From an uncultured Pseudomonadales bacterium (lineage in GTDB: Bacteria > Patescibacteriota > Microgenomatia > UBA1400 > UBA12108): a stretch of DNA of 64,000 nucleotides. Each line of letters starts with the position of its first letter. Position 1 is the first letter of the stretch. Positions 14,805-51,959 of this stretch are shown here, piece by piece. Position numbers and translations under genes: made by a program. The notes under the pieces were generated by a model, which worked only from the letters and a program-made list of their open reading frames with translations, was not told where the DNA came from and ran no database searches. The DNA is taken from assembly GCA_964527065.1 (NCBI GenBank), contig CAZGNX010000001.1:45-64044 (forward strand), in the 5' to 3' direction.

Positions 14805-14965
14805 CTATGGGGAAAACTATGGTAAAAAATAGTTATCCACAACACTTAGGAGTTTTCCACATTGTTGTCCACTGGATTTTCCCCGAACCCTGCAGAGAAT
14901 TGTTCGACAATCCACCGGCTCTACTACTAATACCATTTAACTTAAGATATATTTAGTATTAGCTT
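14805..14965. promoter_or_regulatory. oriC candidate: DnaA-box cluster plus AT-rich unwinding element in the dnaA-dnaN intergenic region
   Basis: Perfect TTATCCACA at 14833-14841. Near-boxes TTTTCCACA (14855-14863) and TTGTCCACT (14867-14875). AT-rich 'taataccatttaacttaagatatatttagtattagctt' at 14925-14965. Confidence 0.55.
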
Positions 14966-16063
14966 ATGAAGATAGAAGTACTCCAGGAACAAATGATGTC
15001 GGGCATGACGACCGTGGCGCGGGCTGTGGCTAACCGCGCTCAACTGCCAGCACTTAGCCATATCCTGATTGAAGCAAAAAGGGAGGGGTTGATACTCTCC
15101 GCGACTGACCTGGAGGTGGGAATGCGCGTGAAGGTGGCGGCAAAGGTTGTAGTCGAAGGGAGGGTGGCTGTACCCGCCAAAATGCTCCTAGAGTTTTTGG
15201 GCTCGTTGAACCCGGGGCGCGTGGAGATTGTAACTCAAGGAGACTCCTTGTTGGTTTCTGCCCCTGGGTATAGCGCCAAGTTTCAGACCATAAGCCCCGA
15301 AGAGTTCCCTGCATTGCCTGAGATAGTGGGTGACACAGAGACGTGCGTACTCGAAGGGAAAGCCTTGGCAGAGGGGGTTGAGCGCGTAGCTTTTGCAAGT
15401 GCGCGCGATACACTGAGGCCCGTACTAACTGGCGTATTATGGGAAGTCTCCAAGAAAAAGGTGCGCTTGGTAGCGACCGACGGGTTTCGCTTGGCAATTG
15501 AGGAGATTGTAGCCGAAAACAAGGGAGAGGTCGGGGCCTTTTTAATTCCCTCCAGGGCCTTGGTGGAGGTTGTGAGATTGCCCACCGAAGGGAAGATCAG
15601 GGTGGGCAAGTTGAGTGCGACTAACCAGCTCTTTTTTGAGGTGGGGGACGTTCAGCTGATGTCGCAGTTATTGGATGGCAACTTCCCCGACTACCAAAAA
15701 ATCATACCCAAAGAATTTAGTACAGAGATTAAAGTAAATAGAGAGGAGCTAACGCAAGCAATTAAGGCAATGTACATTTTCGCCCGAGAGAACTCGAACA
15801 TGGTGCGCTTCCAGATTGAGAGAAACAAATTGGTACTTCTTGCCAGCTCGAGTGAGCGTGGTGAGTCGAGGGCGGAACTCCCCATAACTCTCTCTGGAGA
15901 GCCCCTTGAGATCATCTTTAATGCGCGATATGTGCTTGACTATCTATCAATTGTCGAAGGCGAGCAGGTTGAGATAGCGATGGGAGGGAAGCTCGCGCCG
16001 GGATTGTTTTGTCAATCTAATCGCGAAGGTGGGCAATACATTGTAATGCCGATTAACGCCTAA
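14966..16063 (+). CDS. dnaN: DNA polymerase III beta sliding clamp
   Basis: 365 aa. Three-domain clamp architecture. 'LLDGNFPDYQKIIPKE' conserved motif. Follows dnaA. Confidence 0.95.
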   Translation: MKIEVLQEQMMSGMTTVARAVANRAQLPALSHILIEAKREGLILSATDLEVGMRVKVAAKVVVEGRVAVPAKMLLEFLGSLNPGRVEIVTQGDSLLVSAPGYSAKFQTISPEEFPALPEIVGDTETCVLEGKALAEGVERVAFASARDTLRPVLTGVLWEVSKKKVRLVATDGFRLAIEEIVAENKGEVGAFLIPSRALVEVVRLPTEGKIRVGKLSATNQLFFEVGDVQLMSQLLDGNFPDYQKIIPKEFSTEIKVNREELTQAIKAMYIFARENSNMVRFQIERNKLVLLASSSERGESRAELPITLSGEPLEIIFNARYVLDYLSIVEGEQVEIAMGGKLAPGLFCQSNREGGQYIVMPINA

Positions 16064-17982
16064 TTTTTTTCTTTTGGAGCGGCAGGTAAACTTTGAGCAT
16101 TTAGAGGAGGAGGGGGTTGCTGAGCGTCAGCAGGAGGAGTAAGGGGCGACCTGGGAACACTATTTAACTTGGCAGTTAATGCATTTTGTTTGTCGAGCAA
16201 CTCTTGTGGGTTGGTGGTGATGAGCGCGTGTTCTTCGGGCGAGGCGACCACTTTCATGGCGACGTGGTTCTGACCGGCAAAGAAGAGGGCCTCTCCCACG
16301 TCGGCCGTGAGAAGGAGATGTCGCTCTCCTTGAGAGAGGAAAAAGGTGGTTGCCAGCTTTTCGATGGCGCTACTGCTCTGTTTCATGAGGACCTGAATAC
16401 TGGAGTTGCTGACTATGGCTTTGCCATGGTCGCTCTTGAGGAAGTCTTCAACATCCTGAGTAATGGTGGTTAAACCAAGGAAATATTTGCGGGCGCGTTT
16501 GGCGATGCCATAGAGAAAGGTGGCGGAGTCCTCTGATTTCATGAGGTACCAAGCCTCATCCACCACCAGGAGTCGGCGCTTTAGATCCCGCTTGACCTTG
16601 GTCCAGATGTAGTCGAGGATGATAAAAATGGCGGTGGGGCGGAGCTCATCCTGGAGATTTTTGATCCCAAAAACTGTGAGCTGGGTACCAAAATTGACGT
16701 TGGATTTTTGGGAGAAGATGCCCTGAAACGAACCCTTGACGTATTTCTCTAGGCGATCAGCGAGCCCGCGGGCCACGGCCTCTTCCATGCCGTTGAGAAC
16801 CTTGTAGAGATCTTCCATGAGCGGTGGCTCGAGGGTGTGGGTTGAGGGATCGCGAGTAATCCCCTTCATTTGATAAGTCATCACAAGGGCGCGGTCGAGG
16901 AGCGCTTCTTCTTGGGGCGTCATATCGCCCATCATAATTTTGAGAAGTGAGTGAAGGCTAATAATCTTCATGGCGAGCTCATTTTCGTCGGGCTCTTTCA
17001 TTTGGGGGAGTTCGAAGGGGTTGATGCGGTTGGGGGAGCTAAAGGAGAAGTCAATGTAAGTTCCCTTGATGGCGGAGGAGAGCTTGCGGTACTCGTCCTC
17101 GGGGTCGATGACGATAACCTCCGTGTCAAAGAGGAGCGAGCGCAAGATCTCGAGCTTGACCATGTAGGACTTGCCTGAGCCTGACTTGGCAAACACAACC
17201 ATGTTGGCATTTTCGAGGGTAAAGCGATCAAATACCACAAGACTATCATTGTGTTCGTTGATGCCATACATGAGGCCTTCATTTTGGGTGAGTTCACTAC
17301 TAGTAAAGGGGAAGGTGGTGGCGAGGGAGGTGGTGTCCATGTTGCGGTTCATTTTGAGCTTGTCGAGGCCGGTGGGGAGCGTGGTCTTAAAGCCATCCTC
17401 GATCTGGAGACTCGCGGTTTTGGCGACGATTAAGAGAGCGCCGAGCGCGGACTTGACGTGGTTGGTGACGCGGTCCAAGATATCTTTTTTGTCGTCGCGG
17501 ATCGTGATGTAGAGCCCAAACTGGAAAAAGCGCTCCGATCCTTTGGCCAGTTGTTCTTGGAGTGAGCGGGCGTCTTCGAGTTTGACTTGCGTATCAATAT
17601 TGATAATGCGACCCCGCTGAATGTCTCCTTGGAGCTCGGCCTCCATCTCGGCGATTTTGCGCCGCAAGTCTTCGATAACGCCCTTGCCGTCGACGGGGTA
17701 GATAAACATGGAGATCGAGAGGGAGTGGGGGAAGTTGATGAGCGGGGAGAGCCAGTTGGCGTTCACAAATCTGGGGTAGCCTGCGACGAAGAGAGTGCGG
17801 TAGTAGGTGTCGTTGATTTTGAGATCTGAGAAATCGACCTCGATGGCTTCGGGGGCGATGATATCTTTGACGTTGGTGGTGCCTTGGGACAAGATGGTGA
17901 CGGCGGGAGAGACCTGGGGGCCAGCATCTTTGTCACTCCCCTTTTTGGCACCAAAAAATGACGGCAGGTTCAGTTTGGGCAT
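16060..17982 (-). CDS. virB4: VirB4/TraE/PrgJ-family type IV secretion ATPase
   Basis: 640 aa. Walker A 'VVFAKSGSGKSY', 'NPFE', Walker B 'RLLVVDEAWYLM', C-terminal Pro-rich tail. The stop overlaps the dnaN stop. Confidence 0.85.
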   Translation of the reverse strand: MPKLNLPSFFGAKKGSDKDAGPQVSPAVTILSQGTTNVKDIIAPEAIEVDFSDLKINDTYYRTLFVAGYPRFVNANWLSPLINFPHSLSISMFIYPVDGKGVIEDLRRKIAEMEAELQGDIQRGRIINIDTQVKLEDARSLQEQLAKGSERFFQFGLYITIRDDKKDILDRVTNHVKSALGALLIVAKTASLQIEDGFKTTLPTGLDKLKMNRNMDTTSLATTFPFTSSELTQNEGLMYGINEHNDSLVVFDRFTLENANMVVFAKSGSGKSYMVKLEILRSLLFDTEVIVIDPEDEYRKLSSAIKGTYIDFSFSSPNRINPFELPQMKEPDENELAMKIISLHSLLKIMMGDMTPQEEALLDRALVMTYQMKGITRDPSTHTLEPPLMEDLYKVLNGMEEAVARGLADRLEKYVKGSFQGIFSQKSNVNFGTQLTVFGIKNLQDELRPTAIFIILDYIWTKVKRDLKRRLLVVDEAWYLMKSEDSATFLYGIAKRARKYFLGLTTITQDVEDFLKSDHGKAIVSNSSIQVLMKQSSSAIEKLATTFFLSQGERHLLLTADVGEALFFAGQNHVAMKVVASPEEHALITTNPQELLDKQNALTAKLNSVPRSPLTPPADAQQPPPPLNAQSLPAAPKEKN

Positions 17983-18134
17983 AATAGTCTCAGTATATCA
18001 GCTAGCTGGCAAGTCGGTAACTCAGTGAAATCGGTAGATTATTATTCAGTAAGCCAGCAGATCAGTGTTTCTGTTTTGCTGATGCACGGGGTGGCTGATT
18101 TGCCGAAAAACCGAATAACTGGTTTCACAGCTCA

Positions 18135-18776
18135 TTACTTTGCGGCGACGTTGGGGGCGACGATAGCCTGCTCGTAATCTGAGGCAGTGGTGAATTTTTG
18201 ACCCTTGACCGTGGAGTTGTAAAAACTGTGGAAGAGCTTCATCAAGCTCTGGGAGTTGATTTGTTGGGCGGTTAACCCAATGCGGGTGAGTTGTTTGATG
18301 AGATGATCGCGTTTGGGTTCAAGGTCGGTTTTGGCTTTGAGGATTAAGTCCTCGGTGATTTCGACTTTGCCGGAGAGGGTGACGAGTTGATAGGAGACGA
18401 CAATATAGAATTTTTTATCGAGCACGTTTTGTTCGGTGATTGTCGTTTCAATAAAACTGCGATATTGTTTCATGCGCTCCTTAAGGACTTCGTCTTTGAG
18501 TTTTTTCTCCTGGAGAGAAAGGAGTTCGATATAGGCGCTGATGTCTTTTTTCTCTGATTTGATCACGATTTGGATAGGGAAGGAGAGCGAATTGAGTAGG
18601 CCCGCGTAGGCATAGATGGTCGCGTCCTGCTCTTCTTCGGATAGGAGGCCAAAGTTGATGGCAGAGGTTTGGATGACCAGGCTACAAATGCCGTTTTTGA
18701 GAATGACCAAGTCGTCTTGAACAGTTTCGATGTCGAGATGATCTTGGGTGGTGGCGACAATGACTGATTCGGGCAT
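18135..18776 (-). CDS. hypothetical T4SS-associated protein
   Basis: 213 aa, no TM segment or signature recognised. Its position immediately upstream of virB4 in the same operon supports the call. Confidence 0.5.
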   Translation of the reverse strand: MPESVIVATTQDHLDIETVQDDLVILKNGICSLVIQTSAINFGLLSEEEQDATIYAYAGLLNSLSFPIQIVIKSEKKDISAYIELLSLQEKKLKDEVLKERMKQYRSFIETTITEQNVLDKKFYIVVSYQLVTLSGKVEITEDLILKAKTDLEPKRDHLIKQLTRIGLTAQQINSQSLMKLFHSFYNSTVKGQKFTTASDYEQAIVAPNVAAK

Positions 18777-18944
18777 GAAGCTAGTATAGCGGTTGTTCTC
18801 GCAATCTGCACGACCCCAAACGCAAAAGCGGTCTATCTGCGTCTGCTGACGCAGCGACCTAGAACTCGGCCTAACACGGCCTGCGTAGTTTTTGCAACTT
18901 GTGGCGCGCAGATCACTCGAACAATCTCTTATTAAGAAGGAGAT

Positions 18945-19946
18945 TCAACTACTTGCCCTGAGCTCAATTGGAGATAGGATGGTATTGTTAACGGCGAGCT
19001 GTTGAGGCGGGAAACTGAACCCATCTTTGTCGACCTCGATGACATAGGTCCCAGGACCAAGGGGGGTGGAGGTGTAGAACTGGCCGAGCGAGTTAGTCTT
19101 CATGGCCCTTTGGGGAATGCCGTCGCCGCTGACAATTTGGACGATTGCGTCTGGCACCAATTTGTCTCCTGCATCCACAACCACTCCGGTCACGAGGTTG
19201 GCAACCTTGGGGGAGGCGGGGAGGGTGATGTGTTTGGCAGAGCTAATCGGCACCGTCGCCGCTGATCTGGGGGCAGTGGGCTTGGAAGCGAAGACTATGT
19301 TTTCGGTGGTAGGGGGCGCAGAGACAGTGGTTGGGTTGGGCGCGGACTTGGGTATAGAGATCGGGACAGTTTTTGGAGTTTGGACGATCCGGTTGACCAC
19401 GGCTGACTGTGGGTTGAGTTTGCGGACAACAATTGAGGGCTTGACGACATCAACTGTTTTGGGGGGAGCTGGGGCGGTAGGGGTGACAGGAAGGGAGGTA
19501 AAGAGCGAGTCGAGAGAGGTAATCTTTGTTGATTCTTCAGCGCTCAAGTCTGAGATAGGCGTGCCTACCACTTGAGAGCTGGGAGCTTTGATGGTTTTGG
19601 TAATGGTGGTGACTAGGTCGGGGGGGTGGGCAGTGAAGAGAAACAAACTAGGGATTTTGTTGGTTTTTTGCCAGGTGAAGCGAGTGGGAGCATAAATTGC
19701 TTTGATAAAGTTGACAATCCACTGGTCAAGTGGGCGGTCTTCGATGGGGAAGAAGGCGAGGCCCACCCCCAAGAGGAGCGAGAGAATGACAAGTGGCCAC
19801 TTGAAGATGAAGATAAGGTTGCTGGCAAAGAAGAGGTAGGCAAGCACCATGCCCAGGGCCAGCTCCAAAAATTGCTTGAGCGTCATGTCTCCCACCAGGC
19901 GGAACTGGTACTGGGTCACGTTTTGGGGGATGGGGTGCTGCTGCAT
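18945..19946 (-). CDS. PrgI-like (VirB3-analogue) membrane protein with Pro/Thr-rich linker and C-terminal CarboxypepD_reg-like beta-sandwich
   Basis: 333 aa. TM 'FKWPLVILSLLLGVGLAFFP' + 'IEDRPLDQWIVNFIKAIYAPTRFTW' resembles the PrgI family. C-terminal 'VVDAGDKLVPDAIVQIV...GQFYTSTPLGPGTYVIEVDKDGFSF'. Confidence 0.45.
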   Translation of the reverse strand: MQQHPIPQNVTQYQFRLVGDMTLKQFLELALGMVLAYLFFASNLIFIFKWPLVILSLLLGVGLAFFPIEDRPLDQWIVNFIKAIYAPTRFTWQKTNKIPSLFLFTAHPPDLVTTITKTIKAPSSQVVGTPISDLSAEESTKITSLDSLFTSLPVTPTAPAPPKTVDVVKPSIVVRKLNPQSAVVNRIVQTPKTVPISIPKSAPNPTTVSAPPTTENIVFASKPTAPRSAATVPISSAKHITLPASPKVANLVTGVVVDAGDKLVPDAIVQIVSGDGIPQRAMKTNSLGQFYTSTPLGPGTYVIEVDKDGFSFPPQQLAVNNTILSPIELRASS

Positions 19947-19991
19947 ACAGTTTGAGTATACGGTATGCGGTAGAGAGTATGAAGTATGGGA

Positions 19992-20618
19992 TCAAGGAGA
20001 TGGAGACGGACTGGCAATAACATACCTGTGGGCTTCGGCGTCACCGCCCATGCTCTTTACCCACTCCTTGATTTCGTCAATGGCTTCTTGCGAAGTTATA
20101 TTGAGATTTTTGAGGGTGATCTCTAGTGTCATGGGGGAGGAGTAGACCACGCGGTAGAGTGGGGTGGTGTAGGGGGTGGATTGGGCAAGAGGATAGTCGC
20201 GCGCTAGCTCATCCTTCATGTTTTTGATGAGCAGCGGGTCGGTTTGAGAAGCTTGGGTGGTGAAGGAGTAGTCAGGAAGCTTTTGGTCTTTCCACTTGAT
20301 TTGCAGGAGATATTTTGTTTGTGGTTGAAGAAGAAGAGCAGGCTGTGCTCGTAGGCTTGTGGGGCTGCTTTGACTAAGCGTCCAGGAGATGCTTGGAACA
20401 GAGGCGAGTGTAAAATCAGCCGCAAAAACCTCTTCATCAAAAGTCAATAATGGTTTGATCTCGAGGCTTACGGCAAGGGCATTATGTGTGGGATTAGCTG
20501 CTACAATTTGGGGAGGGCTCGCCATCGACTTGTTCAAAAACACAAAAATAGCCAAAACGACCCCTAGGCCAACAGCCATGATTACATATAAGAGCCTTGA
20601 TCGTAAAAAGCGCTGCAT
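19992..20618 (-). CDS. membrane-anchored hypothetical protein (T4SS locus)
   Basis: ~208 aa. N-terminal TM 'LLYVIMAVGLGVVLAIFVFL', then a Ser/Thr-rich extracytoplasmic region. Translationally coupled to the upstream 945-aa gene. Confidence 0.5.
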   Translation of the reverse strand: MQRFLRSRLLYVIMAVGLGVVLAIFVFLNKSMASPPQIVAANPTHNALAVSLEIKPLLTFDEEVFAADFTLASVPSISWTLSQSSPTSLRAQPALLLQPQTKYLLQIKWKDQKLPDYSFTTQASQTDPLLIKNMKDELARDYPLAQSTPYTTPLYRVVYSSPMTLEITLKNLNITSQEAIDEIKEWVKSMGGDAEAHRYVIASPSPSP

Positions 20619-23455
20619 CATATTCTTCTTAGGTGTCCTGCCACACCAGTTTTAGGGAGACAATTATTGGCGCTAACACAACCATTGCACACTTGGTTGG
20701 CGTCTACCAGACAGACTAAGGCTCCCGCATCTTGCGACATTATACCAATATGGCCCGGGGCGCCGTCGCTACAAGTGCCTGAAGAATTAAAGACAATGGG
20801 GTCTCCGGGCCTGGCCCCACTGAGACCAGACACAAACTGGTATCCTGCGGCACCGCTTGTGTAGTTGCATGCATTTTTCCCTTCGAGACTCCCCCCAGCG
20901 CAGGCGATAGAAGCTTGGACAAAACCAACACATTGGAGATAGGTATAGGAGGTGGCAGAACGCTCGATGATTGCGGCAACTTCTGGTGCGACGGCCTTAG
21001 CGAGGAGGCAACCGATTCCTGTGGTTTGGATTCTTGCGCCTGTTACTGCGGGTCCGTAGCAGGCAGTAAGATAGTCGACGAGACAATTAGCACAACTCAA
21101 GACAGAGTTCCCTGGTGATTGTTCCACGGGGGCGGTCGTCTCTGCGCTTGCTTCGTCATCGTTACAAAAGATGGCGGCGAATAGTTCTGGTCCTGAATCG
21201 ATGTGAGAAGTTATGTTGAATACCTGGAAGAGTAGAAACACCCCTGCAATTAGGGCGCCAACGGCGATGAGAGCAGGGAGAAAAACAGTGGAGAAGAGGG
21301 TTGTTACTAATGTCCCAATAGCACCGATTAAGGCCGAGCCTGTGGCAATTACCCAGGCAACTACGGCGGCGGGAATTGCGACAACTGCGGAGGAAGCAAT
21401 GGATAAGATGGCTGGTAGGCGGCGGATGATCTTGTCTCGGAAGCCGTTTTGGTTGGTGATGAATTCCCAAATGCCCTTGAGACCTGCCCCAATCGCCATA
21501 AGCCCAGCTTGGATCAAAATAGTGGTTCCACCGGAAAGAGTTCCTGCCAGGAAAGACGCTACAACTTTGCCGATTGCGCCATTACTCAGCTTGGTGGCAA
21601 TCCCTGGTGCTATTTTTGTAAACCCACTCCATAACTTGGAGGCTACGGCGGCTTTGACAGCGGTAATGTCCTTTTTATTGAGTATCGTGCGCGCGCTCCA
21701 ATCTAAGATGTTTCCCCACTTTTTTTCGACAAAGTTAAAACTGGCATGACTCCAACTGCCGCCGGCCTGTACGAACCCTTTGGAAAAATCTGAGATGTGG
21801 GTAAAGATGCCGGCATACCACTTGCCGCTTGTACTGGCCTTGGTGGCGACCCCCGTAGACCAGTTAAGGATTTTGTCGGCGATCCAGAGCTGTCCAAGCG
21901 TTGTTTTGTCGGAGATAAGCCTGGCGGGGTTGAGCAGAGGAATCTTTTCTTCGAGCTGTTCCCACTTTTCTGCTAAGTAGTTGAAGGGAGAATGGATAAA
22001 ATCATCGACAGCCCAGATAGTTTTGCCGATTTTTTGAGAGAAACGATCGATGGGAGCTTTGGTGGCGGCATACGTCCCCCTGGCCCGACCAATCTTGTCC
22101 CGCACAGAGAAGAGCACGTCATGATCCAAGGCATATTTGTAGCGCTCGTATTCCGAGCGATATTTAAAGTGATGAACAATCTCAATAATGGCTTCAAAAT
22201 TGGCGTCTTTGCCTTCTTTTGCAAGCTCGGCTTGTAAGAATGCTGTGAGATCTTTGGTTTTATACTTCTCCTCTAGCATGAGACCACTACGGTCTAGGTC
22301 TTTACGCGACCGCCAAGGAGTGTCAAGGGAGACCCCAATGTCTCTGGTTAAACTAAGTGTATGGAGGAGGCGCGGATCACTTTCGAGTACGTTGCCACCT
22401 AAGATTTTGGCCACTTCGTTTTGACGCACTTCTTCGATCAGGGGAGCGAGTGAGGAGAGCTGGTCGAAGGCGGTATCAGGGAAACCGGCCGACTTGAGTG
22501 ACTCCCGGATAAGGACTTCGCCGGAGACAAATCCTGAGGTGGTGGTTGCGATGATGTTTTTACGAAGTGATTCAACGAGCTTGTCCTTGTTTAGATCATG
22601 ACCGGCGACAAGATCAACTAGAGTGGGGATGTCGGCAATGGTTGTTAGCTGGGGGAGGGAGGATAAGCGGGACATATCATCACGGAAGGCTTTTTGTCCT
22701 TCGGGACTACCCCCATACTCCTTTTGAATGACCGCCTCAATGGCGCTCGTGAGTTCGGGTAGCTCTTGATCGGCCTTGGCAGAGTAAGCAAGGTGGCTAG
22801 CATTGTTCAAGGCACCATCACCGGATCTCAGCTGGATTAACTGGGTAATCTCCTCGGCGATAGCGATGGTGCTCTTGCCTGGCGCCGGGCGCAGATTGGC
22901 GGCATCGGCTGCAAGGAGTGCTGAGAGCACCGAAAAAGTGTAGGGGTCTCCTGCAAAGCGCTTTAAGTACTGAGTTTGCTGGATGGCGGTCGTGAGTTTG
23001 CCGAGGATTTTGTCGTTGATTAACTTATATTGCAGATTACGGAGTTCGTTGGCTTTTTTATATGTCTGTCCTTCAGCTGTCTCAGGGCGTAAGTTCTTGA
23101 GAGGGGTGTCTTTGGCTGAGTCAAGAATGGAGCGGAAGTTAGCGGCGGCTTCGCGTGACTTGCCTTGTACGTTGATCTCGAGATAGTTAAGCAGTCGCGA
23201 TGCCCTGATTTTACGCGAGCCCCGGTCGCCCATTGGTAGACTAACCTCGTTGTCCCTTGCCCAAGCCGTAATCTCTTGCCAGGCTTCTTCGGGGGAGAGT
23301 TTGAGTTTTGTTTTATCTGGTAAGTCGAGTTCTAAGGGACGGTTGCTGAGGATGAGCTTGAGGTAGTAGGTGAGGAGCTGGTGGTTACTATTTAAGTCTC
23401 GAGCCAAGAGATCTTGGAGATAGCGACGTTGAACTTGTGAGATTGTACTGGCCAT
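20618..23455 (-). CDS. T4SS-associated membrane protein with C-terminal CHAP-domain peptidoglycan hydrolase (VirB1 functional analogue)
   Basis: 945 aa. ~640-aa N-terminal helical domain, then a TM cluster ('LPAILSIASSAVVAIPAAVVAWVIATGSALIGAIG...'). C-terminal 'YTYLQCVGFV' (catalytic Cys) and 'GAPGHIGIM' (His) of CHAP. Confidence 0.65.
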   Translation of the reverse strand: MASTISQVQRRYLQDLLARDLNSNHQLLTYYLKLILSNRPLELDLPDKTKLKLSPEEAWQEITAWARDNEVSLPMGDRGSRKIRASRLLNYLEINVQGKSREAAANFRSILDSAKDTPLKNLRPETAEGQTYKKANELRNLQYKLINDKILGKLTTAIQQTQYLKRFAGDPYTFSVLSALLAADAANLRPAPGKSTIAIAEEITQLIQLRSGDGALNNASHLAYSAKADQELPELTSAIEAVIQKEYGGSPEGQKAFRDDMSRLSSLPQLTTIADIPTLVDLVAGHDLNKDKLVESLRKNIIATTTSGFVSGEVLIRESLKSAGFPDTAFDQLSSLAPLIEEVRQNEVAKILGGNVLESDPRLLHTLSLTRDIGVSLDTPWRSRKDLDRSGLMLEEKYKTKDLTAFLQAELAKEGKDANFEAIIEIVHHFKYRSEYERYKYALDHDVLFSVRDKIGRARGTYAATKAPIDRFSQKIGKTIWAVDDFIHSPFNYLAEKWEQLEEKIPLLNPARLISDKTTLGQLWIADKILNWSTGVATKASTSGKWYAGIFTHISDFSKGFVQAGGSWSHASFNFVEKKWGNILDWSARTILNKKDITAVKAAVASKLWSGFTKIAPGIATKLSNGAIGKVVASFLAGTLSGGTTILIQAGLMAIGAGLKGIWEFITNQNGFRDKIIRRLPAILSIASSAVVAIPAAVVAWVIATGSALIGAIGTLVTTLFSTVFLPALIAVGALIAGVFLLFQVFNITSHIDSGPELFAAIFCNDDEASAETTAPVEQSPGNSVLSCANCLVDYLTACYGPAVTGARIQTTGIGCLLAKAVAPEVAAIIERSATSYTYLQCVGFVQASIACAGGSLEGKNACNYTSGAAGYQFVSGLSGARPGDPIVFNSSGTCSDGAPGHIGIMSQDAGALVCLVDANQVCNGCVSANNCLPKTGVAGHLRRI

Positions 23456-23498
23456 GGGGTTATTCTAGCATTGTGCTTGCCTCTGGTGTGATAGAATT

Positions 23499-26798: not shown

Positions 26799-26801
26799 TG
26801 C

Positions 26802-28376: not shown

Positions 28377-28399
28377 AGTTCACCTGATTTTATCATATA

Positions 28400-28909
28400 T
28401 TAGGGCTTGAGCTTGAGAGCGGTAATCCAGGCTTGGGTAGTATGTCTCACATATTCTTTGTCGCCGTAGATGAAAATGAGTTTTTTGGGATCAATATTTT
28501 GACCTTCAAGCATCTCCATAGCCTTGAGATAACTTTCTTTGAACGCTGTGACGTTGGGGTTCTTTTTTTCGTCTGCATCCGCGTTGAGATATGAGAGGCC
28601 GTAGATCTCGAGACGTACAATCTCGGCTTCGTCGTCGTCAAGGCGATAGAGGTTGATAGAAGTGGTGATGCCCACGGAGGTCTCGAAGGACTCGAGGTAG
28701 AGTGGGAGCTTGTTTTCAATCGAAGCAACATACACCATAGTGTCGCGGCGTTTTTCGGCTGAGAGATCGGCGAGTTCGATGCGGCTGGGTCCAGTTGGGA
28801 CGGGTAGTTCTGCAGGGTTGCTGACATTTTTACTTGGCGAGAGAAGTAGTACTAGGACGAGGAGAGAGATCGAGATAGCGGCGGCGATAAGGAAGAATTT
28901 GTTGTTCAT
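28400..28909 (-). CDS. membrane-anchored hypothetical protein
   Basis: 169 aa. N-terminal TM 'FFLIAAAISISLLVLVLLL'. Translationally coupled (3-nt gap) to the upstream 879-aa gene. Confidence 0.5.
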   Translation of the reverse strand: MNNKFFLIAAAISISLLVLVLLLSPSKNVSNPAELPVPTGPSRIELADLSAEKRRDTMVYVASIENKLPLYLESFETSVGITTSINLYRLDDDEAEIVRLEIYGLSYLNADADEKKNPNVTAFKESYLKAMEMLEGQNIDPKKLIFIYGDKEYVRHTTQAWITALKLKP

Positions 28910-28911
28910 AC

Positions 28912-31551
28912 CTAGAACCCTGGTAGCTTGATAATATCACCCGCGACAATACGCAAAATCGAGACCGAGAAAATAAGGAAGAGGAGTCCGGTGACGGCGG
29001 CACCAAAGAGTTCTTTGCCTTTTTTGAGTTTCTCGTCATTGTCTCTGGCGGTCATGATTTGGAAGATGGCGATAAACATCACCACGATAGCGATACCGCC
29101 GGCTAGGCCGACCAAGAAAGCAAAAAGCGCGGTGCCAAAGGCCTCTCTCGTGTAGGGGATACAACCCAGGGCGGTGGAGAGTGATTGCGGGCCACAACTC
29201 GTGGGGAAGAAGCCGAAGGTGCCAGGCTCGTTGTCTGGTGTTGTGGGGGGGATTAGTGGGGCGGGAGGGGGAGAGGGGAGCTCGGTATTTTCATAACCAC
29301 CCTTGGTCATGTTGTTATACACGCTGAGAGCAACAGTAAACGAACCAGGTCTTTCAAAGATTTGAGGGGCGCAGGCGGTGCGGTCGGCACAGTAGAGGAG
29401 ATACATCGAATCGTGTTTGCCATCGAGGAAGCTGGTCGGGTAGGGATCGTCCTCGCCTTCAAAAGCGCGGGGACAGCCGCCATAGGGGATGGGATAAGGA
29501 TAACCGAGTTGACAGTTACTGTTGCCACCACCGTTGTAGCGGGAGAGAGCGGTGATGGCAGTCTGCGCATCCCCAATTGCCCCGCCCACCTTGCCTTTGA
29601 GATGTTCACCCGCATAGACGGCAGTCTCAAGGAGGGAGCGGAAGATCTTACCGCCCGCATCGGGCTCGGGAGTGCCGAGAGCCCGCCCAGAAACGAGTGA
29701 GCCATTGGGGTTATTGGCCGCCTCGACAAAGTGGATACCCGCCAAGATTTCACACGGTACGCCGGTCTCCTTTTCGGCGGCGGCATAGGTGTTCATTAGT
29801 TCGGCGCTCAAATTGGGTTGGATAAACGTCGAGAAGTAGCTCTCGCCCTTGGCGCTCGCGCTCTGATAATTACTACTGCCAAGCAGTTCACCAAACAGCC
29901 GTCCGTCACATTTACCTTCTGGTACCACCTGGGCGGTATCGCAGCCATTGCGGGTACCCAGAGCGTACGCCTCAACGCTAGTCTCAAGCTGAGCGGAAAA
30001 CATGTTGTCAGCACAGGTGTAGTAGCCATAATGACGCCTACCATCGGCGGGACCTGAGTATTTGCCTGCTTTGAGAAGATCAAGGTTGTCGTCTACGACA
30101 TTGCTGAGTTTAACATTAAACTCTTTGACTGATTCTAGCTCGGCCAAGGTATCGCGAGTGTCGTAGGTGTATTGCTTAATCTCTGCGATACTTTGACCCA
30201 TTGCGTCTGGAATTGTCAAGAGGTGATAAACGACAGGTTCAACGTCGTCAATCTGAGCGCCCCAAATGAGATTGATGAGAGCTTGTAGAAGGTTGCCGGT
30301 GGGGAATGCCGCGGCCTTTTCTTTTTGTACCTCTGGTTGGAGGCGGTAGCCAGGGCAGTTTTTATCTCCTCCGAGAAAAGATGGTGTTTCCAAATAGTCG
30401 TAGATTTGGTAAAAGGCGCCGTAGGAACCAAAGTGATATTTGAAACAGGGATTGCTCGCCATAAGCTCTGGAATGAGGCGTGCCTTAATCTTTTTGGCGG
30501 TGGCGTTTGGCGCCGCAGAGCCAGCAAAGCGAATTAGCTGGTTGGACGAGGCAAGGTCGCGAATTATTTTGCTTGCCTCATCTAGTGGATAGGTGAGAAG
30601 TAGATCGTCAAGGGCGGCGCCAAAGGCTTGGGAGATAGAGATGTCGCCGTAGAGCGCGTTGGAGTTGCCCTCCAACGCAAGGCTGCTAAAGGGGCAGTTT
30701 TCTCCGGGGCAACAGCGATCCCAGACGCAGATACTGGCGTGGACATACCCCTGGCGAAACGAGGGGCTATACATCGGGACTTGGGAGAGGTCCCTAAACC
30801 ACTCAGGTGGGGTAGTTTGTGAAGCTGCCTCTTCTATAGCGTCACAGGCTCGTTTACGGGAGCTTGAGGCATCGGAGACGGCATCGAGATTGCCGGCGTT
30901 TAAGAAAAAATCGTCCGTTGCTTCCACTATCACCTGTCCAGCCCCTGCCAATCCTCCAGGTATTTCGTCGCGGATCTCGAGTAAGGTTTTGCCGTTCTGG
31001 GTTGTGTAGCCCCAGTCGACCCAGCCAAGTGGCCACTGCCCAGTCTCAGCTAGAGTGTTCTTGGTTTGCTTGGCACGAATCACGACCATGAGCTGTTTGG
31101 TCATGATCTCGCACTGAGTAAGCCCGAGGAAGTGGGTACCCCAAGTGATCGCGTTATCTGTACCCATGTTGCCATACAAGAGGGCTTCGTTTTGGATTTT
31201 GGGGAAAACGAGGCGAGTGAGTGGACGAGCGCCCGTCTCAGCTCCCGTTTCTTGATTCAGTGTCCGATTCTCAGCGGAAAAGTCCGTAGCTTTGATATCG
31301 GAGCCAACGCGGGGTTTTTTCTTGTACTCACATTCGCCCACGCTAACCCCACTCTTGGTAGGATCTTTGATGGCGGTACAACTACCATTGCCTGAAGAGA
31401 CTGTACTATGATAATCACCTCTGCCATTGGCCACCTTGCGCTCACAGAGATCAACCTCTCCACCATCACAGCCGTCAATGAGCTCGCCTGATTGATTATC
31501 GCGCTCACAATAGTCATCTCTACGATCAGCACCTTCGTACTCACAGACCAT
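28912..31551 (-). CDS. giant secreted fusion protein: Cys-rich region + SLT-like lytic transglycosylase motif + C-terminal VirB2/TrbC-like pilin module. Preceded in frame by a signal-peptide ORF cut off by TAG
   Basis: 879 aa from the Met at 31551. 'ILAGIHFVEAANNPNGSLVSGRALG' resembles the SLT catalytic 'ESSFNPNA...GA.GLMQ'. The last ~80 aa ('LGCIP...GLAGGIAIVVMF...KKGKELFGAAVTGLLFLIFSVSILRIVAGDIIKLPGF') are nearly identical to ORF 38811..39248. Confidence 0.7.
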   Translation of the reverse strand: MVCEYEGADRRDDYCERDNQSGELIDGCDGGEVDLCERKVANGRGDYHSTVSSGNGSCTAIKDPTKSGVSVGECEYKKKPRVGSDIKATDFSAENRTLNQETGAETGARPLTRLVFPKIQNEALLYGNMGTDNAITWGTHFLGLTQCEIMTKQLMVVIRAKQTKNTLAETGQWPLGWVDWGYTTQNGKTLLEIRDEIPGGLAGAGQVIVEATDDFFLNAGNLDAVSDASSSRKRACDAIEEAASQTTPPEWFRDLSQVPMYSPSFRQGYVHASICVWDRCCPGENCPFSSLALEGNSNALYGDISISQAFGAALDDLLLTYPLDEASKIIRDLASSNQLIRFAGSAAPNATAKKIKARLIPELMASNPCFKYHFGSYGAFYQIYDYLETPSFLGGDKNCPGYRLQPEVQKEKAAAFPTGNLLQALINLIWGAQIDDVEPVVYHLLTIPDAMGQSIAEIKQYTYDTRDTLAELESVKEFNVKLSNVVDDNLDLLKAGKYSGPADGRRHYGYYTCADNMFSAQLETSVEAYALGTRNGCDTAQVVPEGKCDGRLFGELLGSSNYQSASAKGESYFSTFIQPNLSAELMNTYAAAEKETGVPCEILAGIHFVEAANNPNGSLVSGRALGTPEPDAGGKIFRSLLETAVYAGEHLKGKVGGAIGDAQTAITALSRYNGGGNSNCQLGYPYPIPYGGCPRAFEGEDDPYPTSFLDGKHDSMYLLYCADRTACAPQIFERPGSFTVALSVYNNMTKGGYENTELPSPPPAPLIPPTTPDNEPGTFGFFPTSCGPQSLSTALGCIPYTREAFGTALFAFLVGLAGGIAIVVMFIAIFQIMTARDNDEKLKKGKELFGAAVTGLLFLIFSVSILRIVAGDIIKLPGF

Positions 31552-31644
31552 TAGTGGTTGATAGTCACGAGTGAGATCGCGGTTTTCGTAGACTTTGAAA
31601 TATGGTGCTCGTATGAAACGAAAGAGACTGAATAGCTCAAACTA

Positions 31645-31773
31645 CTCCTCGCGCTCGGGGTTGCCTTCAATAGAGAAGGGGGGGAAGGGGTCGATGGCCA
31701 GGGAAAGAGGAGGAAATAGGAAATAGGAAATAGGAAATAGGAATAATACGAAAAAACGCAAGAGCTTTTTCAT
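31645..31773 (-). CDS. signal-peptide mini-ORF (43 aa) in frame with the 879-aa gene but separated by TAG (31642-31644). Possible pseudogene 5' part or readthrough site
   Basis: Hand translation: MKKLLRFFVLFLFPISYFLFPPLSLAIDPFPPFSIEGNPEREE*. 'LA|IDP' matches the cleavage context of the 145-aa paralogue ('AALAIDP'). Frame stays open from 31641 to the Met at 31551. Confidence 0.5.
31712..31746. repeat. (GGAAATA)4 + GGAATAA heptanucleotide tandem repeat within the signal-peptide ORF
   Basis: Read directly. Same unit as 10607-10634. Encodes 'FPISYFLFP'. Confidence 0.9.
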
Positions 31774-31775
31774 AG

Positions 31776-32072
31776 CTAGTTAAAGCCAAATCTAAACTCA
31801 GTGACACTGGCTCCTGTTGTATTTTGGATGAATAAGAGGATGAGCCAGGAGAGAATTGAGAGCGCGATACCCACCACTGCGAGAGTAATTGTCTGCTTGC
31901 CTCCGGCCATACCCTTGGGATCACCACCTGAGGTAAGAATCTTGAAACCGCCAATGAGGAGCATGATAAAGGCAACTATGCCAATGAGGGGGATCATGGC
32001 CTCAAGGATGTTGCCGAAGTAGTCGGAGAGACAAGATAGTTCGGCGGCGGAAGCGGTATCGTTGCATGGCAT
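31776..32072 (-). CDS. VirB2/TrbC-like pilin family small membrane protein (paralogue 1)
   Basis: 98 aa. Two hydrophobic helices flanking 'LTSGGDPKGMAGG'. Same architecture as its neighbours. Confidence 0.5.
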   Translation of the reverse strand: MPCNDTASAAELSCLSDYFGNILEAMIPLIGIVAFIMLLIGGFKILTSGGDPKGMAGGKQTITLAVVGIALSILSWLILLFIQNTTGASVTEFRFGFN

Positions 32073-32280
32073 ATGGGATGATTATAGCAAAGAGCAAGGG
32101 TCGGATGATCACATTAATTTTATCTCACTGACTAAAATTGATCTCAAATACGATTGCTCGCAGGCTTCTCGTCTGCACCTGTTCGACTAGACGGCATACT
32201 CGCATTTTCAGGCGAATTTTCGCTCAATTTCTTAACGTATGTTCGTAAAATTAACGATGATCATCCTCACGCTAGGAGTC

Positions 32281-32631
32281 TTAGTAGGCTTTGGGTGGGG
32301 TGATGTTGTCGTTCAATATGCTGATACCGAAGAAGTATTGAATGACAAGCATGATGGCCCAGGCGCTCGCCACAACCGCCAAGCCAACGAGAGCGGCAGT
32401 GATACGATCACGAGCTTCCTGCGTTTTGCCTTTGTCACCGCCGGAGGTGATCCATTGGATGCCACCCCAAATAAGATACATGAAGACGAGCAGGGCAGAT
32501 ATAAGTAGAGCACCCTGGACAGCCCCTTTGATGAGCGTGCCAATGTTGGTGATGGCGACGTTTTCGGGTTTGCCAATTGAGAGTTCTGGAGCGCCTGGGG
32601 CTTGAGCGTAAACTTTGATTGAATCAAACAT
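32281..32631 (-). CDS. VirB2/TrbC-like pilin family small protein (paralogue 2)
   Basis: 116 aa. 'GGIQWITSGGDKGKTQEARDRI' loop between two hydrophobic helices. Confidence 0.55.
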   Translation of the reverse strand: MFDSIKVYAQAPGAPELSIGKPENVAITNIGTLIKGAVQGALLISALLVFMYLIWGGIQWITSGGDKGKTQEARDRITAALVGLAVVASAWAIMLVIQYFFGISILNDNITPPKAY

Positions 32632-32680
32632 ATCTTTCTCCTTATTTGTACTATCTAGTTATAGTGTAGTCAATTATTGA

Positions 32681-33049
32681 TTATTGTGCAATACCTATTC
32701 CAAAGAAATAATCTAGCAGGAGATAGACTGCCCAAGCAGAGGCGACAATGGCGAGTCCAATGATGCCGTTGGTGATTTTGGCGCGCGCTTCGTCCAGTTT
32801 GCCCTTGTCACCACCGGAACTAATCCACTGCAGACCTCCATAGATAAGATAGAGGAGCGTGGCAAGGCCAGCCACAAGAATAATGGCAGAGATGGTTTTG
32901 CTGACGAATGAGCCAAGATCGGTGTTGATGGCGACGCGTGATTCGACCTGATCACCTATACTGACGTTGAATGAGCCGGCTTGGGCATGAGCTGAGCTAG
33001 GAAAGAGGAAAGAGGAAAGAGGAAATAGATACAGTAAAATTTTTTTCAT
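32681..33049 (-). CDS. VirB2/TrbC-like pilin family small protein (paralogue 3)
   Basis: 122 aa. Signal peptide 'MKKILLYLFPLSSFLFPSSAHA'. 'GGLQWISSGGDKGKLDEARAKI'. Confidence 0.55.
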   Translation of the reverse strand: MKKILLYLFPLSSFLFPSSAHAQAGSFNVSIGDQVESRVAINTDLGSFVSKTISAIILVAGLATLLYLIYGGLQWISSGGDKGKLDEARAKITNGIIGLAIVASAWAVYLLLDYFFGIGIAQ

Positions 33050-33053
33050 ATGC

Positions 33054-33443
33054 TCAGCCGGCAGTGGGCCAGATTATATTGAGTATATTCATCCCGATGG
33101 CCATCTCAATAAACTTGATAATGACATAAGAGGCAGCGAGGAGGGCGAGTCCCACGAGACCTTGGGTGATTTTGCCCCTAGCTTCGTCGATCTTGCCTTT
33201 GTCACCCCCGGCCGTGATCCACTGTAAGCCGCCGTGCAAAAAGTAGAGGATAAACGCGAGCCCACCTACAAGAATGATGGTCTGCCAAAGAGTAGCGATC
33301 GTGATAGCAAATTGTTGTGGGGAAGCATCGGGTGAGTCACCTCCTGGTACGGCGGTGTTGGTGATGGCGGCATGCGCCAGAGACGCTCTTGTATAAAGTA
33401 TGGAGTATAGGGTATATAGTATCGGGACTATTTTGTTTGTCAT
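33054..33443 (-). CDS. VirB2/TrbC-like pilin family small protein (paralogue 4)
   Basis: 129 aa. 'GGLQWITAGGDKGKIDEARGKI'. N-terminus 'ILYTLYSILYT' is encoded by a degenerate AGTATRG heptamer repeat (33395-33425). Confidence 0.55.
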   Translation of the reverse strand: MTNKIVPILYTLYSILYTRASLAHAAITNTAVPGGDSPDASPQQFAITIATLWQTIILVGGLAFILYFLHGGLQWITAGGDKGKIDEARGKITQGLVGLALLAASYVIIKFIEMAIGMNILNIIWPTAG

Positions 33444-33445
33444 TT

Positions 33446-33805
33446 TTAGTTCACTGTAAGGCCGTTAATAAGTGCGCCAGGGTTGAGGATGTCGAGCCCC
33501 AGTGCTTTGCCCACAATCCAGACGATAGCATAAGAAACAGTGACTACAATGATGCCTGTTGCGCCTCCTGTCATCATGCTTTTGGCTTTGTCGATCTTGC
33601 CTTTGTCACCACCGGCCGTGATCCAATTGAGGCCACCCAGGAGGAAATAGAGGGCGAAGGCTATGCCAGCCACGAGAGTGAGGATTACAAGAATATTGCT
33701 GATGAGTTTTTCCACGGCACTTGTTGACCCCTCGATGCCTGTCCCTGGTTGGTAGCCACCGGGAGTGGTGATGTTGCCAAATTGGAGCGCGAGGTATTTG
33801 TTCAT
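33446..33805 (-). CDS. VirB2/TrbC-like pilin family small protein (paralogue 5)
   Basis: 119 aa. 'GGLNWITAGGDKGKIDKAKSMM'. Confidence 0.55.
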   Translation of the reverse strand: MNKYLALQFGNITTPGGYQPGTGIEGSTSAVEKLISNILVILTLVAGIAFALYFLLGGLNWITAGGDKGKIDKAKSMMTGGATGIIVVTVSYAIVWIVGKALGLDILNPGALINGLTVN

Positions 33806-33809
33806 ATGT

Positions 33810-34148
33810 TTAGTTGGGTGATCCTGGTCCGACTATATTGGGGGAGAGAATTGCGGTCGCAGAACCAAAGAGGAGGAAAGAGACTATGCCAGTGACGGCA
33901 GCCGCGGCTACCATGATGGCGAGGCCGATGAGGGACATGTTGATTGAGTAGAGCGCTGACTCGATCTTTTTAGTATCTCCGGCGGCGCTAATATAACTAA
34001 AACCAGCTATCATGAGGTTGAAGAAAGCGAATAGTCCGGCGGCGGCAAAAATAATCGTAATAACATTGGTTATAAAAGTAGGGAGGCCAGACTCAACGGA
34101 ACCGTAGGCGGTGATGGGGGAATCGATACTACCAAATGTGCTTGGCAT
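33810..34148 (-). CDS. VirB2/TrbC-like pilin family small protein (paralogue 6, divergent)
   Basis: 112 aa. 'SYISAAGDTKKIESAL' between two hydrophobic helices. Confidence 0.5.
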   Translation of the reverse strand: MPSTFGSIDSPITAYGSVESGLPTFITNVITIIFAAAGLFAFFNLMIAGFSYISAAGDTKKIESALYSINMSLIGLAIMVAAAAVTGIVSFLLFGSATAILSPNIVGPGSPN

Positions 34149-34152
34149 AAGT

Positions 34153-34473
34153 TTATATATTACTGTTTAGTATTGATAGTCCTGTCACCACTTGGATTAG
34201 TTGGATAATCCAGTAAGAGGCGAAGAGGACTAACAGCCCCATTATAGCAGAGGTGATAGTTTTGGTACCGTCTTTGATTTTGTCAGTGTTGCCGGCATTG
34301 CTGATGATGGTAAAGCCGCCAAAGAGGATCATAAAGAAGATGACAATACCTCCGGCGATATAGACATTGGGGAGAATGTTGTTGATAAGGGAGCTCGTGT
34401 CTGGATACTGGGAACTGGCGGGGGTACCCTGGAATTTGAGTTTTTCACCAATATTGACGGTAGAAACTGGCAT
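34153..34473 (-). CDS. VirB2/TrbC-like pilin family small protein (paralogue 7, divergent)
   Basis: 106 aa. 'GGFTIISNAGNTDKIKDGTK' between two hydrophobic helices. Confidence 0.5.
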   Translation of the reverse strand: MPVSTVNIGEKLKFQGTPASSQYPDTSSLINNILPNVYIAGGIVIFFMILFGGFTIISNAGNTDKIKDGTKTITSAIMGLLVLFASYWIIQLIQVVTGLSILNSNI

Positions 34474-34510
34474 GTCTCAAGTATAGCGTATCCAGTATAA
34501 TGTATATAGT
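34474..34510. promoter_or_regulatory. 37-nt divergent promoter region between the pilin array and the ECF sigma operon; GTATA-type heptamer periodicity
   Basis: 'gtctcaagtatagcgtatccagtataatgtatatagt'. Contains a TATAAT-like hexamer and AGTATAG / CGTATCC / AGTATAA / TGTATAT / AGTATGG 7-mers. Confidence 0.4.
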
Positions 34511-35047
34511 ATGGAGGAATTGGTTGAGAAAGTCTTGAATGGTCAGAAGGGGGCGGCGACGCGGTTTTACCACACCCTTTCGCCTAGCGTAAAGCGATAT
34601 TTGGCAGGCAAACTACCTGGGCATGAGGAGGTGGAGGAGCTAACCCAAGAAGTGTTTTTGTCGGCACTTGACTCGCTATCACTCTACCGTGGTGAGTCCA
34701 GTCTCAAGACCTGGATACTCTCGATTGCCCGCCACGAAGTGGCGGACTATTACCGCAAGCGTTATGTACGTGCCGTCATTGAGCAGACCTCCCCATTATT
34801 TGATGCGATCGTGGCAGATATCCATACCCCAGAATTTGAGATGAAGAAGAGCAAGCTTAGAGCCCGGTTTATGCGGGCATATCATGGTCTGAGTGAGCAA
34901 TACCGAGATGTTTTGAGTTTTCGCTTTGAGCTAGGGATGAGCGTCAAAGAGATTGCAGAGAGAATGGAAATGAGCGTCAAGGCGACAGAGTCACTGCTCT
35001 TTAGAGCACGAACAGCATTTAGAGTGGCTTATGAAACCAGAGAATAG
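34511..35047 (+). CDS. ECF-type RNA polymerase sigma-70 family factor
   Basis: 178 aa. Region 2 ('EELTQEVFLSALDSLSLYRGESSLKTWILSIARHEVADYYR') and region 4 HTH ('MSVKEIAERMEMSVKATESLLFRAR'). Confidence 0.85.
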   Translation: MEELVEKVLNGQKGAATRFYHTLSPSVKRYLAGKLPGHEEVEELTQEVFLSALDSLSLYRGESSLKTWILSIARHEVADYYRKRYVRAVIEQTSPLFDAIVADIHTPEFEMKKSKLRARFMRAYHGLSEQYRDVLSFRFELGMSVKEIAERMEMSVKATESLLFRARTAFRVAYETRE

Positions 35048-38808: not shown

Positions 38809-38810
38809 AT

Positions 38811-51651: not shown

Positions 51652-51736
51652 ATGGAGGTACTATCTCAAACTAGGTGAAATATATCAAGAGGATTTATAA
51701 CGGATTTATAAATTACTCTGGGGATTTTATAAACTG

Positions 51737-51948: not shown

Positions 51949-51959
51949 AGGTTTGAAAA

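Follow-up and report, generated by a model that had tools for sequence, protein, structure and literature searches.

A probable core type IV secretion locus beside dnaN in a Microgenomates-class Patescibacterium, with candidate slot and pilin-fusion modules

The 64-kb chromosomal stretch analysed here (positions 45-64044 of contig CAZGNX010000001.1, hereafter the window and numbered 1-64000) carries at 16060-34473 a block of type IV secretion system (T4SS) genes, all on the minus strand except for one plus-strand gene. In our opinion, this locus is very probably a core, vertically inherited T4SS of a Microgenomates-class Patescibacterium, of a lineage derived from the conjugation machinery of monoderms of mating-pair-formation type FATA (MPF-FATA), and now serves an epibiotic lifestyle, not plasmid transfer. 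The parts list of the locus and its conservation are demonstrated here. Open reading frames (ORFs) were scanned with Pfam across the window, and NCBIfam was applied to the locus proteins. The relatives used for comparison were 80 species-level loci, taken with 10-kb flanks around virB4 and numbered L005, L008 and so on. An initial annotation of this DNA had placed two minus-strand operons from 16060 onward with a 1099-aa gene between them, which was confirmed, and had likened them to the reduced VirB4/VirB6/VirB2-type sets of small-genome episymbionts. The present tests and published surveys support this likeness except for its VirB6 part, for which there are topology, position and a non-significant fold match. 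The genes of the block are as follows.

16060-17982, minus strand: VirB4 ATPase, 640 amino acids (aa), NF045971 and PF19044
18135-18776, minus strand: TrsD-like protein, 213 aa, VirB4 N-domain and TrsD models
18945-19946, minus strand: PrgI/VirB3-like membrane protein, 333 aa, PF12666
19992-20621, minus strand: bitopic protein with an Ig-like (Big_5) ectodomain, 209 aa, PF13205
20618-23455, minus strand: 945-aa membrane protein with a CHAP-type module, PF05257 below threshold
23499-26798, plus strand: slot gene, 1099 aa, conserved position, no known domain
26802-28376, minus strand: VirB6 candidate, 524 aa, signal peptide and about 5-6 transmembrane (TM) helices
28400-28909, minus strand: bitopic protein, 169 aa, one N-terminal TM helix
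28912-31773, minus strand: pilin-fusion gene, 953 codons, in-frame TAG at 31642-31644, called as an 879-aa ORF at 28912-31551
31776-34473, minus strand: seven VirB2-like pilin genes, PF18895, at 31776-32072, 32281-32631, 32681-33049, 33054-33443, 33446-33805, 33810-34148 and 34153-34473

The VirB4 ATPase scored 398.5 bits against NCBIfam NF045971 (conju_CD1110; cutoff 325) and also matched the Pfam TraG P-loop family PF19044 (E 2e-28), and its Walker A (AKSGSGKS) and Walker B (LLVVDEAW) motifs can be read directly from the sequence, so that this assignment of the initial annotation holds. The protein spans positions 180-734 of the 752 in the NF045971 model, and the usual N-terminal domain is missing. 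Matches of the 213-aa TrsD-like protein cover positions 12-173 of the CD1110 VirB4 model (8e-8) and 108-290 of VirB4_plasma (7e-10) and include TrsD NF041427 (3e-5), all three being below cutoff. The complementary coverage of the CD1110 model by the two proteins indicates that the motor is split into two genes. All 120 listed relatives of VirB4 (74-100% identity) were found in metagenome bins of Candidate Phyla Radiation (CPR) type, with more than 100 CPR clusters at 74-95%, and those that bear a name belong to Collierbacteria, Woesebacteria or Microgenomates. These similarities are consistent with a placement of this VirB4 in the Patescibacteria clade.

The PrgI/VirB3-like protein, likewise named correctly in the initial annotation, exceeded its Pfam gathering score (PF12666, 30.6 bits versus 27) and has two TM helices, a linker rich in Pro/Thr/Ser and, at its C-terminus, a beta-sandwich domain (CarboxypepD_reg 1e-6). 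The TrsD-like gene is present in 73 and prgI in 67 of the 80 related loci, and virB4 and these two genes co-occur in 67-73 of them. Two small bitopic proteins are also kept in the locus. The 209-aa protein has a single N-terminal TM helix and an ectodomain matching PF13205 (24.3 bits, gathering score 23.6), and by its topology it is possibly a VirB8-type scaffold candidate. The 169-aa protein, in which BLASTP found no similarity to PrgL of pCF10, is by topology a VirB8/PrgL-type candidate.

Two long contigs, L083 and L084, repeat the gene order of the entire 18 kb and share with the window the sequence of sigma factor, seven pilins, fusion, a gene of about 180 aa, VirB6 candidate, slot gene, hydrolase and a gene of about 200 aa. 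Identity between the window and these contigs falls steeply along the parts list, from 88% for VirB4 (a value measured against L009, which is the same contig as L083) through 62-90% for the pilins, 56-63% for the sigma factor, 44-58% for the 169-aa protein, 48% for the VirB6 candidate, 43-47% for the fusion, 31-47% for the 209-aa protein and 26-30% for the hydrolase, to none detected for the slot gene. VirB4 is 86-93% identical in relatives in which DnaA is 62-85% and DnaN 45-66% identical.

The block lies in a conserved chromosomal setting, and immediately before it the following two genes are found.

13425-14804, plus strand: dnaA (Pfam Bac_DnaA, 3e-64)
14966-16063, plus strand: dnaN (Pfam DNA_pol3_beta, 4e-33)

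The 3' ends of dnaN and virB4 overlap by 4 nucleotides (nt), and upstream, rnpA, yidC and jag are encoded on the minus strand, divergent from dnaA. Among the related loci, dnaN was found at most 10 kb from virB4 in 68 of 80; it is convergent and directly adjacent in 27 loci, with dnaA immediately downstream in 20 of these, and convergent at a distance of 1.7-4.9 kb in a further 16. In only two loci having enough flank is dnaN missing. Pfam scans of the ORFs across the window, the only part of the genome in view, revealed no relaxase, VirD4-type coupling protein or integrase, and neither an excisionase nor a flanking tRNA was found in the 64 kb. The other ORFs of the window gave housekeeping-type families or no match, and the base composition of the locus is like that of its flanks. 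The initial annotation had recognised no relaxase or coupling protein, had described the system as core, not mobile, and had proposed to look at the synteny of dnaN and virB4 in related genomes; the first two statements are borne out by the scans and by the dnaN linkage, and the synteny proved widespread.

The pilin array was identified correctly in the initial annotation. All seven pilins match PF18895 (E 5e-9 to 4e-5), five of them exceeding the gathering score of 26.6 and the other two reaching 24-25 bits, and each contains two TM helices. The paralogues of the array are mutually 21-45% identical, whereas every one of them has an orthologue in the same order in L083 and L084 with 62-90% identity. 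This one-to-one orthology points to seven old, specialised subunits. A recently amplified or antigenically varying array was set aside in view of these orthologues; antigenic variation of pilin arrays is an idea put forward in PMC12102498. A weak match to NCBIfam NF045849, a pilin-like family of mycoplasma integrated conjugative elements (ICEs), was obtained for the 116-aa pilin (32281-32631; 1e-6) and noted together with the C-terminus of P0122, a homologue of the fusion protein. It hints that VirB2-like pilins may already exist in monoderm MPF-FATA systems and thus bears on the published question of whether the pilins of Patescibacteria were co-opted from diderm systems. Between the sixth and seventh pilin genes there is a gap of 208 nt (32073-32280) with no ORF in it; the orthologous gap in L083 is 66 nt long.

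A regulatory gene lies directly beyond the array.

34511-35047, plus strand: extracytoplasmic function (ECF)-type sigma factor (Sigma70_r2 3e-13, r4_2 2e-12)

This gene diverges from the first pilin gene, with 37 nt between the two start codons (34474-34510), and the same divergent layout with a gap of 36-37 nt was observed in L083 and L084. With so short a gap, both promoters must lie within the neighbouring coding regions. A scan for promoters and terminators gave counts no better than in shuffled sequence. The sigma factor is a candidate regulator of the pilin array.

The gene between the last pilin and the 169-aa protein encodes a pilin fusion. The 879-aa ORF called here has no signal peptide, yet it contains 24 cysteines and a C-terminal pilin hairpin. 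Upstream in the same frame, an ATG (31773-31771), three bases past the stop of the preceding pilin gene, is followed by a signal peptide, then by a TAG and then by the ORF. Homologues of 920-965 aa are uninterrupted and have Tyr at codon 44 (REEYFD versus REE*FE here), and TAG is an ordinary stop in this genome. These facts together lead to a 953-codon gene with one nonsense change, which parts the signal peptide from the rest of the protein. Recoding of TAG was rejected, as this codon terminates 16 of 56 genes in the window. An error of assembly or a recent allele would account for the change, readthrough being the least likely option. The giant pilin fusion of 879 aa proposed in the initial annotation is therefore right as to its pilin module, at the level of the family, and the ORF itself is the downstream part of an interrupted gene for a secreted protein.

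In its complete form, the protein starts with a signal peptide, continues with a Cys-rich ectodomain that includes a lysozyme-like region, and ends in a VirB2-like pilin module of two helices. The latter is weak in the window (PF18895, E 0.003), and 37 of 43 family members match PF18895. An AlphaFold2 model of the homologue P0122 (954 aa; predicted local distance difference test, pLDDT, 75) was compared with PDB by Foldseek, and 16 of the top 17 matches were lytic transglycosylases or g-type lysozyme, including MltE, phiKZ gp144, MltF, SltB2 and cod lysozyme; these matches had E 0.3-3.5 and probability up to 0.84, none being significant. The family conserves the motif GVPCExLAGIHFxEAxNxP with Glu675 and Glu684, and we take its GVPCE..HFxEAxNxP pattern to resemble the catalytic region of GH23. 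The assignment of the ectodomain as a lysozyme is suggestive on the basis of these models.

In the 945-aa protein, a long N-terminal part is followed by a cluster of TM segments at about 676-752 and, at the C-terminus, by a cysteine peptidase module of CHAP type. Its Cys842 (in LQCVGF) and His902 (in GHIG) align with those of the CHAP domain of PrgK from pCF10, and this Cys/His motif is kept in five orthologues (L005, L008, L009, L011 and L013). In the same place, the more distant orthologues L017 and L030 carry the sequence SSGPHLHYEIR instead, which we read, from the motif and not from an HMM (hidden Markov model) match, as presumably of M23 type. A CHAP module in five orthologues, an M23-type motif in two and an M15/M23-like module in Southlakia suggest that a swappable peptidoglycan-hydrolase end is the constant feature. 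Judging from its sequence, the protein is a candidate VirB1/PrgK-type cell-wall hydrolase; of the CHAP hydrolase in the initial annotation, the conserved catalytic residues are thus retained, and the score is discussed below.

The 524-aa protein is probably the VirB6 equivalent of the locus, as suggested by its topology, its place in the operon and a weak fold match, and is not a demonstrated family member. Its AlphaFold model has pLDDT 68, and TrwI was among the top matches for this model in two independent structure searches. A comparison with PrgH of pCF10 by hhalign gave a probability of 0.1%, and a profile search of PDB gave no match. Among the assignments for which the initial annotation had suggested HMM searches, VirB4, PrgI and five of the seven pilins were found above cutoff, the CHAP module below it and VirB6 without a match.

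The single plus-strand gene occupies the slot between the hydrolase and the VirB6 candidate and diverges from the hydrolase gene with a 43-nt gap. Its 1099-aa product, the slot protein, is soluble, rich in Lys and Glu, with one Cys, no TM segment and no signal peptide. Sequence and profile searches of Pfam, NCBIfam, PHROG and PDB gave no match for it or for its positional counterparts, and only 16 representatives were found among 1.84 billion proteins. L005-L013, L083 and L084 have a gene for 981-1328 aa in this slot, again on the opposite strand. These counterparts, from relatives with VirB4 86-93% identical, share the Lys/Glu-rich, Cys-poor composition, and most pairs between genomes are without BLASTP similarity. 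By hhalign, the slot family of the window was tied solely to the L008/L013 type (probability 97.9%), the other pairs of slot groups scoring like an aminoacyl-tRNA-synthetase control. A short C-terminal motif, DWE[DY]F..I.L.K..NEE, common to the window family and L005/L006, was seen by eye only. Such a combination of about 90% identical VirB4 with no detectable similarity in the slot is what an arms race would be expected to produce in a secreted effector or a factor for host specificity. The gene had earlier been called an orphan, which is true of its sequence, hypervariable and of no recognisable family, and does not apply to its conserved position.

From these parts, a working of the machine may be proposed. 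The split VirB4, PrgI and the VirB6 candidate would form a membrane translocon, in which the 524-aa polytopic protein would be the VirB6-type channel subunit, and VirB4 would drive the building of a heteromeric pilus from the seven specialised subunits. The fusion protein, held by its own pilin module, could show an enzyme or adhesin domain on this pilus. The 945-aa protein as a cysteine-peptidase wall hydrolase and the fusion as a lysozyme-like one would together provide the two activities that PrgK combines in enterococcal plasmids, and these two hydrolases may open peptidoglycan, either the cell's own or that of the host. The machine would touch the host cell envelope and breach it locally, whereupon macromolecules would be moved, most likely proteins outward and not DNA led by a relaxase. 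The slot protein, hypervariable, soluble and of about 1100 aa, is a candidate substrate or cargo.

Other explanations of the locus were considered. It is highly improbable, and close to refuted, that it represents an ICE or a remnant of one, i.e. a mobile MPF-FATA module inserted beside dnaN by chance. VirB4 does exceed the NCBIfam cutoff for the conjugative CD1110 family, one pilin matches the mycoplasma-ICE family, and PrgI, TrsD and CHAP are typical of Gram-positive conjugation systems, but the 64 kb are free of the mobility genes and flanking tRNA listed above, the composition equals that of the flanks, and the same chromosomal position is held in dozens of species with VirB4 more conserved than DnaA. 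In PMC12102498, moreover, a relaxase is reported near virB4 in only 15 cases. A DNA-import machine like archaeal Ced or Helicobacter ComB, taking host or environmental DNA as a source of nucleotides, is less easily dismissed and nevertheless quite unlikely. The weak match of VirB4 to CedB (1e-13), accompanied by one to CedD, amounts to 50.6 bits against a cutoff of 700 and reflects shared ATPase folds. Patescibacteria are unable to make nucleotides (PMC12857230), yet in Southlakia the deletion of comEC ended competence and left viability unaffected, the T4SS being essential (PMC12857230). Loci of the ABY1 class adjoin comF, recG and radA, according to PMC12102498, and there is no export-side coupling protein nearby; however, competence genes are absent from the window except for a ComF-like 261-aa protein 10 kb away. 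We regard DNA import as less likely than the export of proteins, the slot protein being a candidate cargo.

It may also be asked whether the locus is decaying in this genome, so that the nonsense codon of the fusion gene is real and the cluster is turning into pseudogenes. The TAG stands in place of the conserved Tyr codon 44, cuts off the signal peptide and is a normal stop, ending 16 of 56 genes, all of which would agree with decay. The 879 codons after the stop, however, remain intact and share 77% identity with the nearest homologue, no other gene of the locus is shortened, and a single-base change (TAY to TAG) is within the range of error or polymorphism of a metagenome assembly, so that decay is unlikely, if somewhat less so than DNA import.

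Several observations weigh against a core T4SS of the composition and working described above. The CHAP match of the 945-aa protein (PF05257, 21.5 bits, E 3e-4) is below the gathering score of 26. VirB6 is without HMM support, since neither the 524-aa protein nor its 57 homologues matched Pfam or NCBIfam at E up to 1, and both structural matches to TrwI are non-significant and fall within a noisy helical background; the VirB6-like gene of the initial annotation is consequently left with its polytopic nature and its conserved place in the operon. None of the proteins at the locus was identified as a VirB8 homologue. For the lysozyme-like domain no significant E-value was obtained, nor any Pfam SLT match in any of the 43 family members, and the premature TAG may mean that one component is defective here. 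The substrate role of the slot protein is one that we purely infer, as are the cargo and direction of transport in Microgenomates systems. Finally, the guanine-cytosine (GC) skew is strongly positive (0.09-0.31) over the whole window, on both sides of dnaA and whatever the gene strand. It is also one-signed in the closest relatives (L005-L013), and its sign flips near dnaA in more distant Microgenomates (L017, L024, L027, L035 and L049). The position at the replication origin, as claimed in the initial annotation, therefore rests on gene order and on four DnaA boxes flanking dnaA, with pairs at 13431-13450 and 14833-14861 (TTATCCACA scan), and not on a flip of the skew. The skew-defined origin in this clade may not coincide with dnaA.

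The reading of the locus as a core T4SS is in line with known systems. The survey of Quinonero-Coronel et al. 2025 (PMC12102498) describes a Patescibacteria-specific VirB4 clade nested in MPF-FATA, with VirB4 split in this lineage, TrsD and PrgI as partners, 2-11 pilin genes in an array (particularly among Microgenomatia), no relaxase, and a location close to dnaA/dnaN, for which a gene-dosage hypothesis is given. The locus shares with the Microgenomatia arrangement of that text the VirB4 with a separate TrsD-like gene, PrgI/VirB3, the PF18895 array, the lack of a relaxase or coupling protein nearby and the neighbours dnaA, dnaN and rnpA. According to the same survey, VirB6 is scarce in Microgenomatia and VirB1 is usually unlinked to virB4, whereas here a VirB6 candidate and two hydrolase candidates lie in the locus.

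Southlakia cannot grow as an epibiont without its T4SS and pilin genes, and this requirement is independent of ComEC (Wang et al. 2023, PMC10633639; review PMC12857230). The cluster of Southlakia epibionticum ML1 (SEML1_0006-0019; PMC10633639) adjoins dnaN at the chromosome start and, as here, contains VirB4 with a small upstream partner, PrgI, a large protein (about 1100 aa) with a peptidoglycan peptidase module at its end, lysozyme-like and VirB6-like proteins and tandem pilins (six). It differs in that its pilins diverge from the other genes of the cluster, VirB6 has an extended form (1088 aa), the hydrolase module is M15/M23-like, not CHAP, the lysozyme domains reside in a separate 643-aa protein instead of a pilin fusion, the cluster has an NTF2-like protein (VirB8-type), and there is no opposite-strand gene among SEML1_0006-0013.

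In the MPF-FATA prototype, the Prg/Pcf system of the Enterococcus faecalis plasmid pCF10, PrgI also adjoins a CD1110-family VirB4, and the operon encodes PrgK, a large hydrolase of the wall that combines lysozyme and CHAP domains, the latter aligning in Cys and His with the 945-aa protein. Unlike the locus in the window, pCF10 has a coupling protein (PcfC), a relaxase (PcfG) and adhesins, no pilins, and a VirB4 that is a single 796-aa protein, and its PrgH and PrgL are without similarity to the 524-aa (by profile) and 169-aa proteins. The MPF-T systems, R388 Trw and Agrobacterium VirB, have similar two-helix VirB2-type pilins; the fold of TrwI (VirB6) is the best-aligned structural match to the 524-aa model, within background noise, and the lytic transglycosylase VirB1 assists assembly. 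In contrast to MPF-T, the locus is without the outer-membrane components VirB7/9/10, VirB11 and VirB5, its pilins make up a seven-member array, and its lysozyme-like domain is fused to a pilin module.

Related parts also lie outside the extent given in the initial annotation, whose limits exclude the ECF sigma factor (34511-35047) and two pilins (38494-39248). The latter form a pair about 4 kb from the array, beside a SpoIID-domain protein.

38494-38808 and 38811-39248, minus strand: two further pilin genes (PF18895, 1e-9 and 1e-4)
39213-40922, plus strand: SpoIID-domain protein, 569 aa, overlapping the pilin pair head to head

The 145-aa pilin of this pair (38811-39248), a stand-alone paralogue 7 kb away from the fusion, shares 64% identity with the fusion's pilin module and only 16-29% with the array pilins. 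A pilin pair adjoining SpoIID recurs in L083. SpoIID is presumably a lytic-transglycosylase family, and the pair with SpoIID may be an accessory wall-remodelling module of the same system.

The Pfam-matched genes downstream of the block are housekeeping ones and include, besides the sigma factor, NUDIX, undecaprenyl-diphosphate synthase, smpB with tmRNA, glycogen genes, the SUF system and tsaD/tsaE. SufB (831 aa, 55599-58094) contains an intein with a LAGLIDADG-type homing-endonuclease region (Intein_splicing 2e-17). Two adjacent tRNA-Ser genes are situated at 51736-51949 on the minus strand; Rfam confirms the second as a tRNA, and ARAGORN gives it an unusual ACT anticodon at position 36, probably because of a mis-registered anticodon loop. 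Upstream of the origin genes, a polysaccharide-synthesis neighbourhood includes a 135-aa RNase H-like protein (RVT_3; 8482-8889, minus strand) and a 915-aa DUF4012 protein (5440-8187, minus strand).

Summarizing these data, it may be concluded that the interpretation of the locus in the initial annotation is right and already published, systems of this kind having been described in 2023-2025 (Wang 2023; Quinonero-Coronel 2025). Relative to the consulted parts of PMC12102498 and PMC10633639, the following may be new: VirB6 and hydrolase candidates inside a Microgenomates locus, a pilin-fusion protein with a lysozyme-like region and its stand-alone paralogue, the slot gene, hypervariable and on the opposite strand, the seven pilins as one-to-one orthologues and a conserved ECF sigma factor in divergent orientation.

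The present locus adds no new principle; it is a clean example from Microgenomates, with a place for each gene of the 18-kb block, and gives testable leads on gaps of the 2025 survey, namely the VirB6 and VirB1 equivalents of Microgenomatia, the purpose of the pilin paralogues and a possible cargo. We tentatively suggest, well short of an even chance, that T4SS loci of this Microgenomates clade may hold two undescribed modules, a fast-evolving slot effector or host-specificity factor and a wall-degrading or adhesive enzyme borne on the pilus by pilin fusion. If true, these two modules and the seven conserved pilins would make up a heteromeric, enzyme-tipped pilus bringing variable cargo to the host. 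To our knowledge, the T4SS class of Patescibacteria is the only one essential for the growth of its owner and the only monoderm one with a pilin array, and it is probably central to the exploitation of hosts by CPR bacteria.

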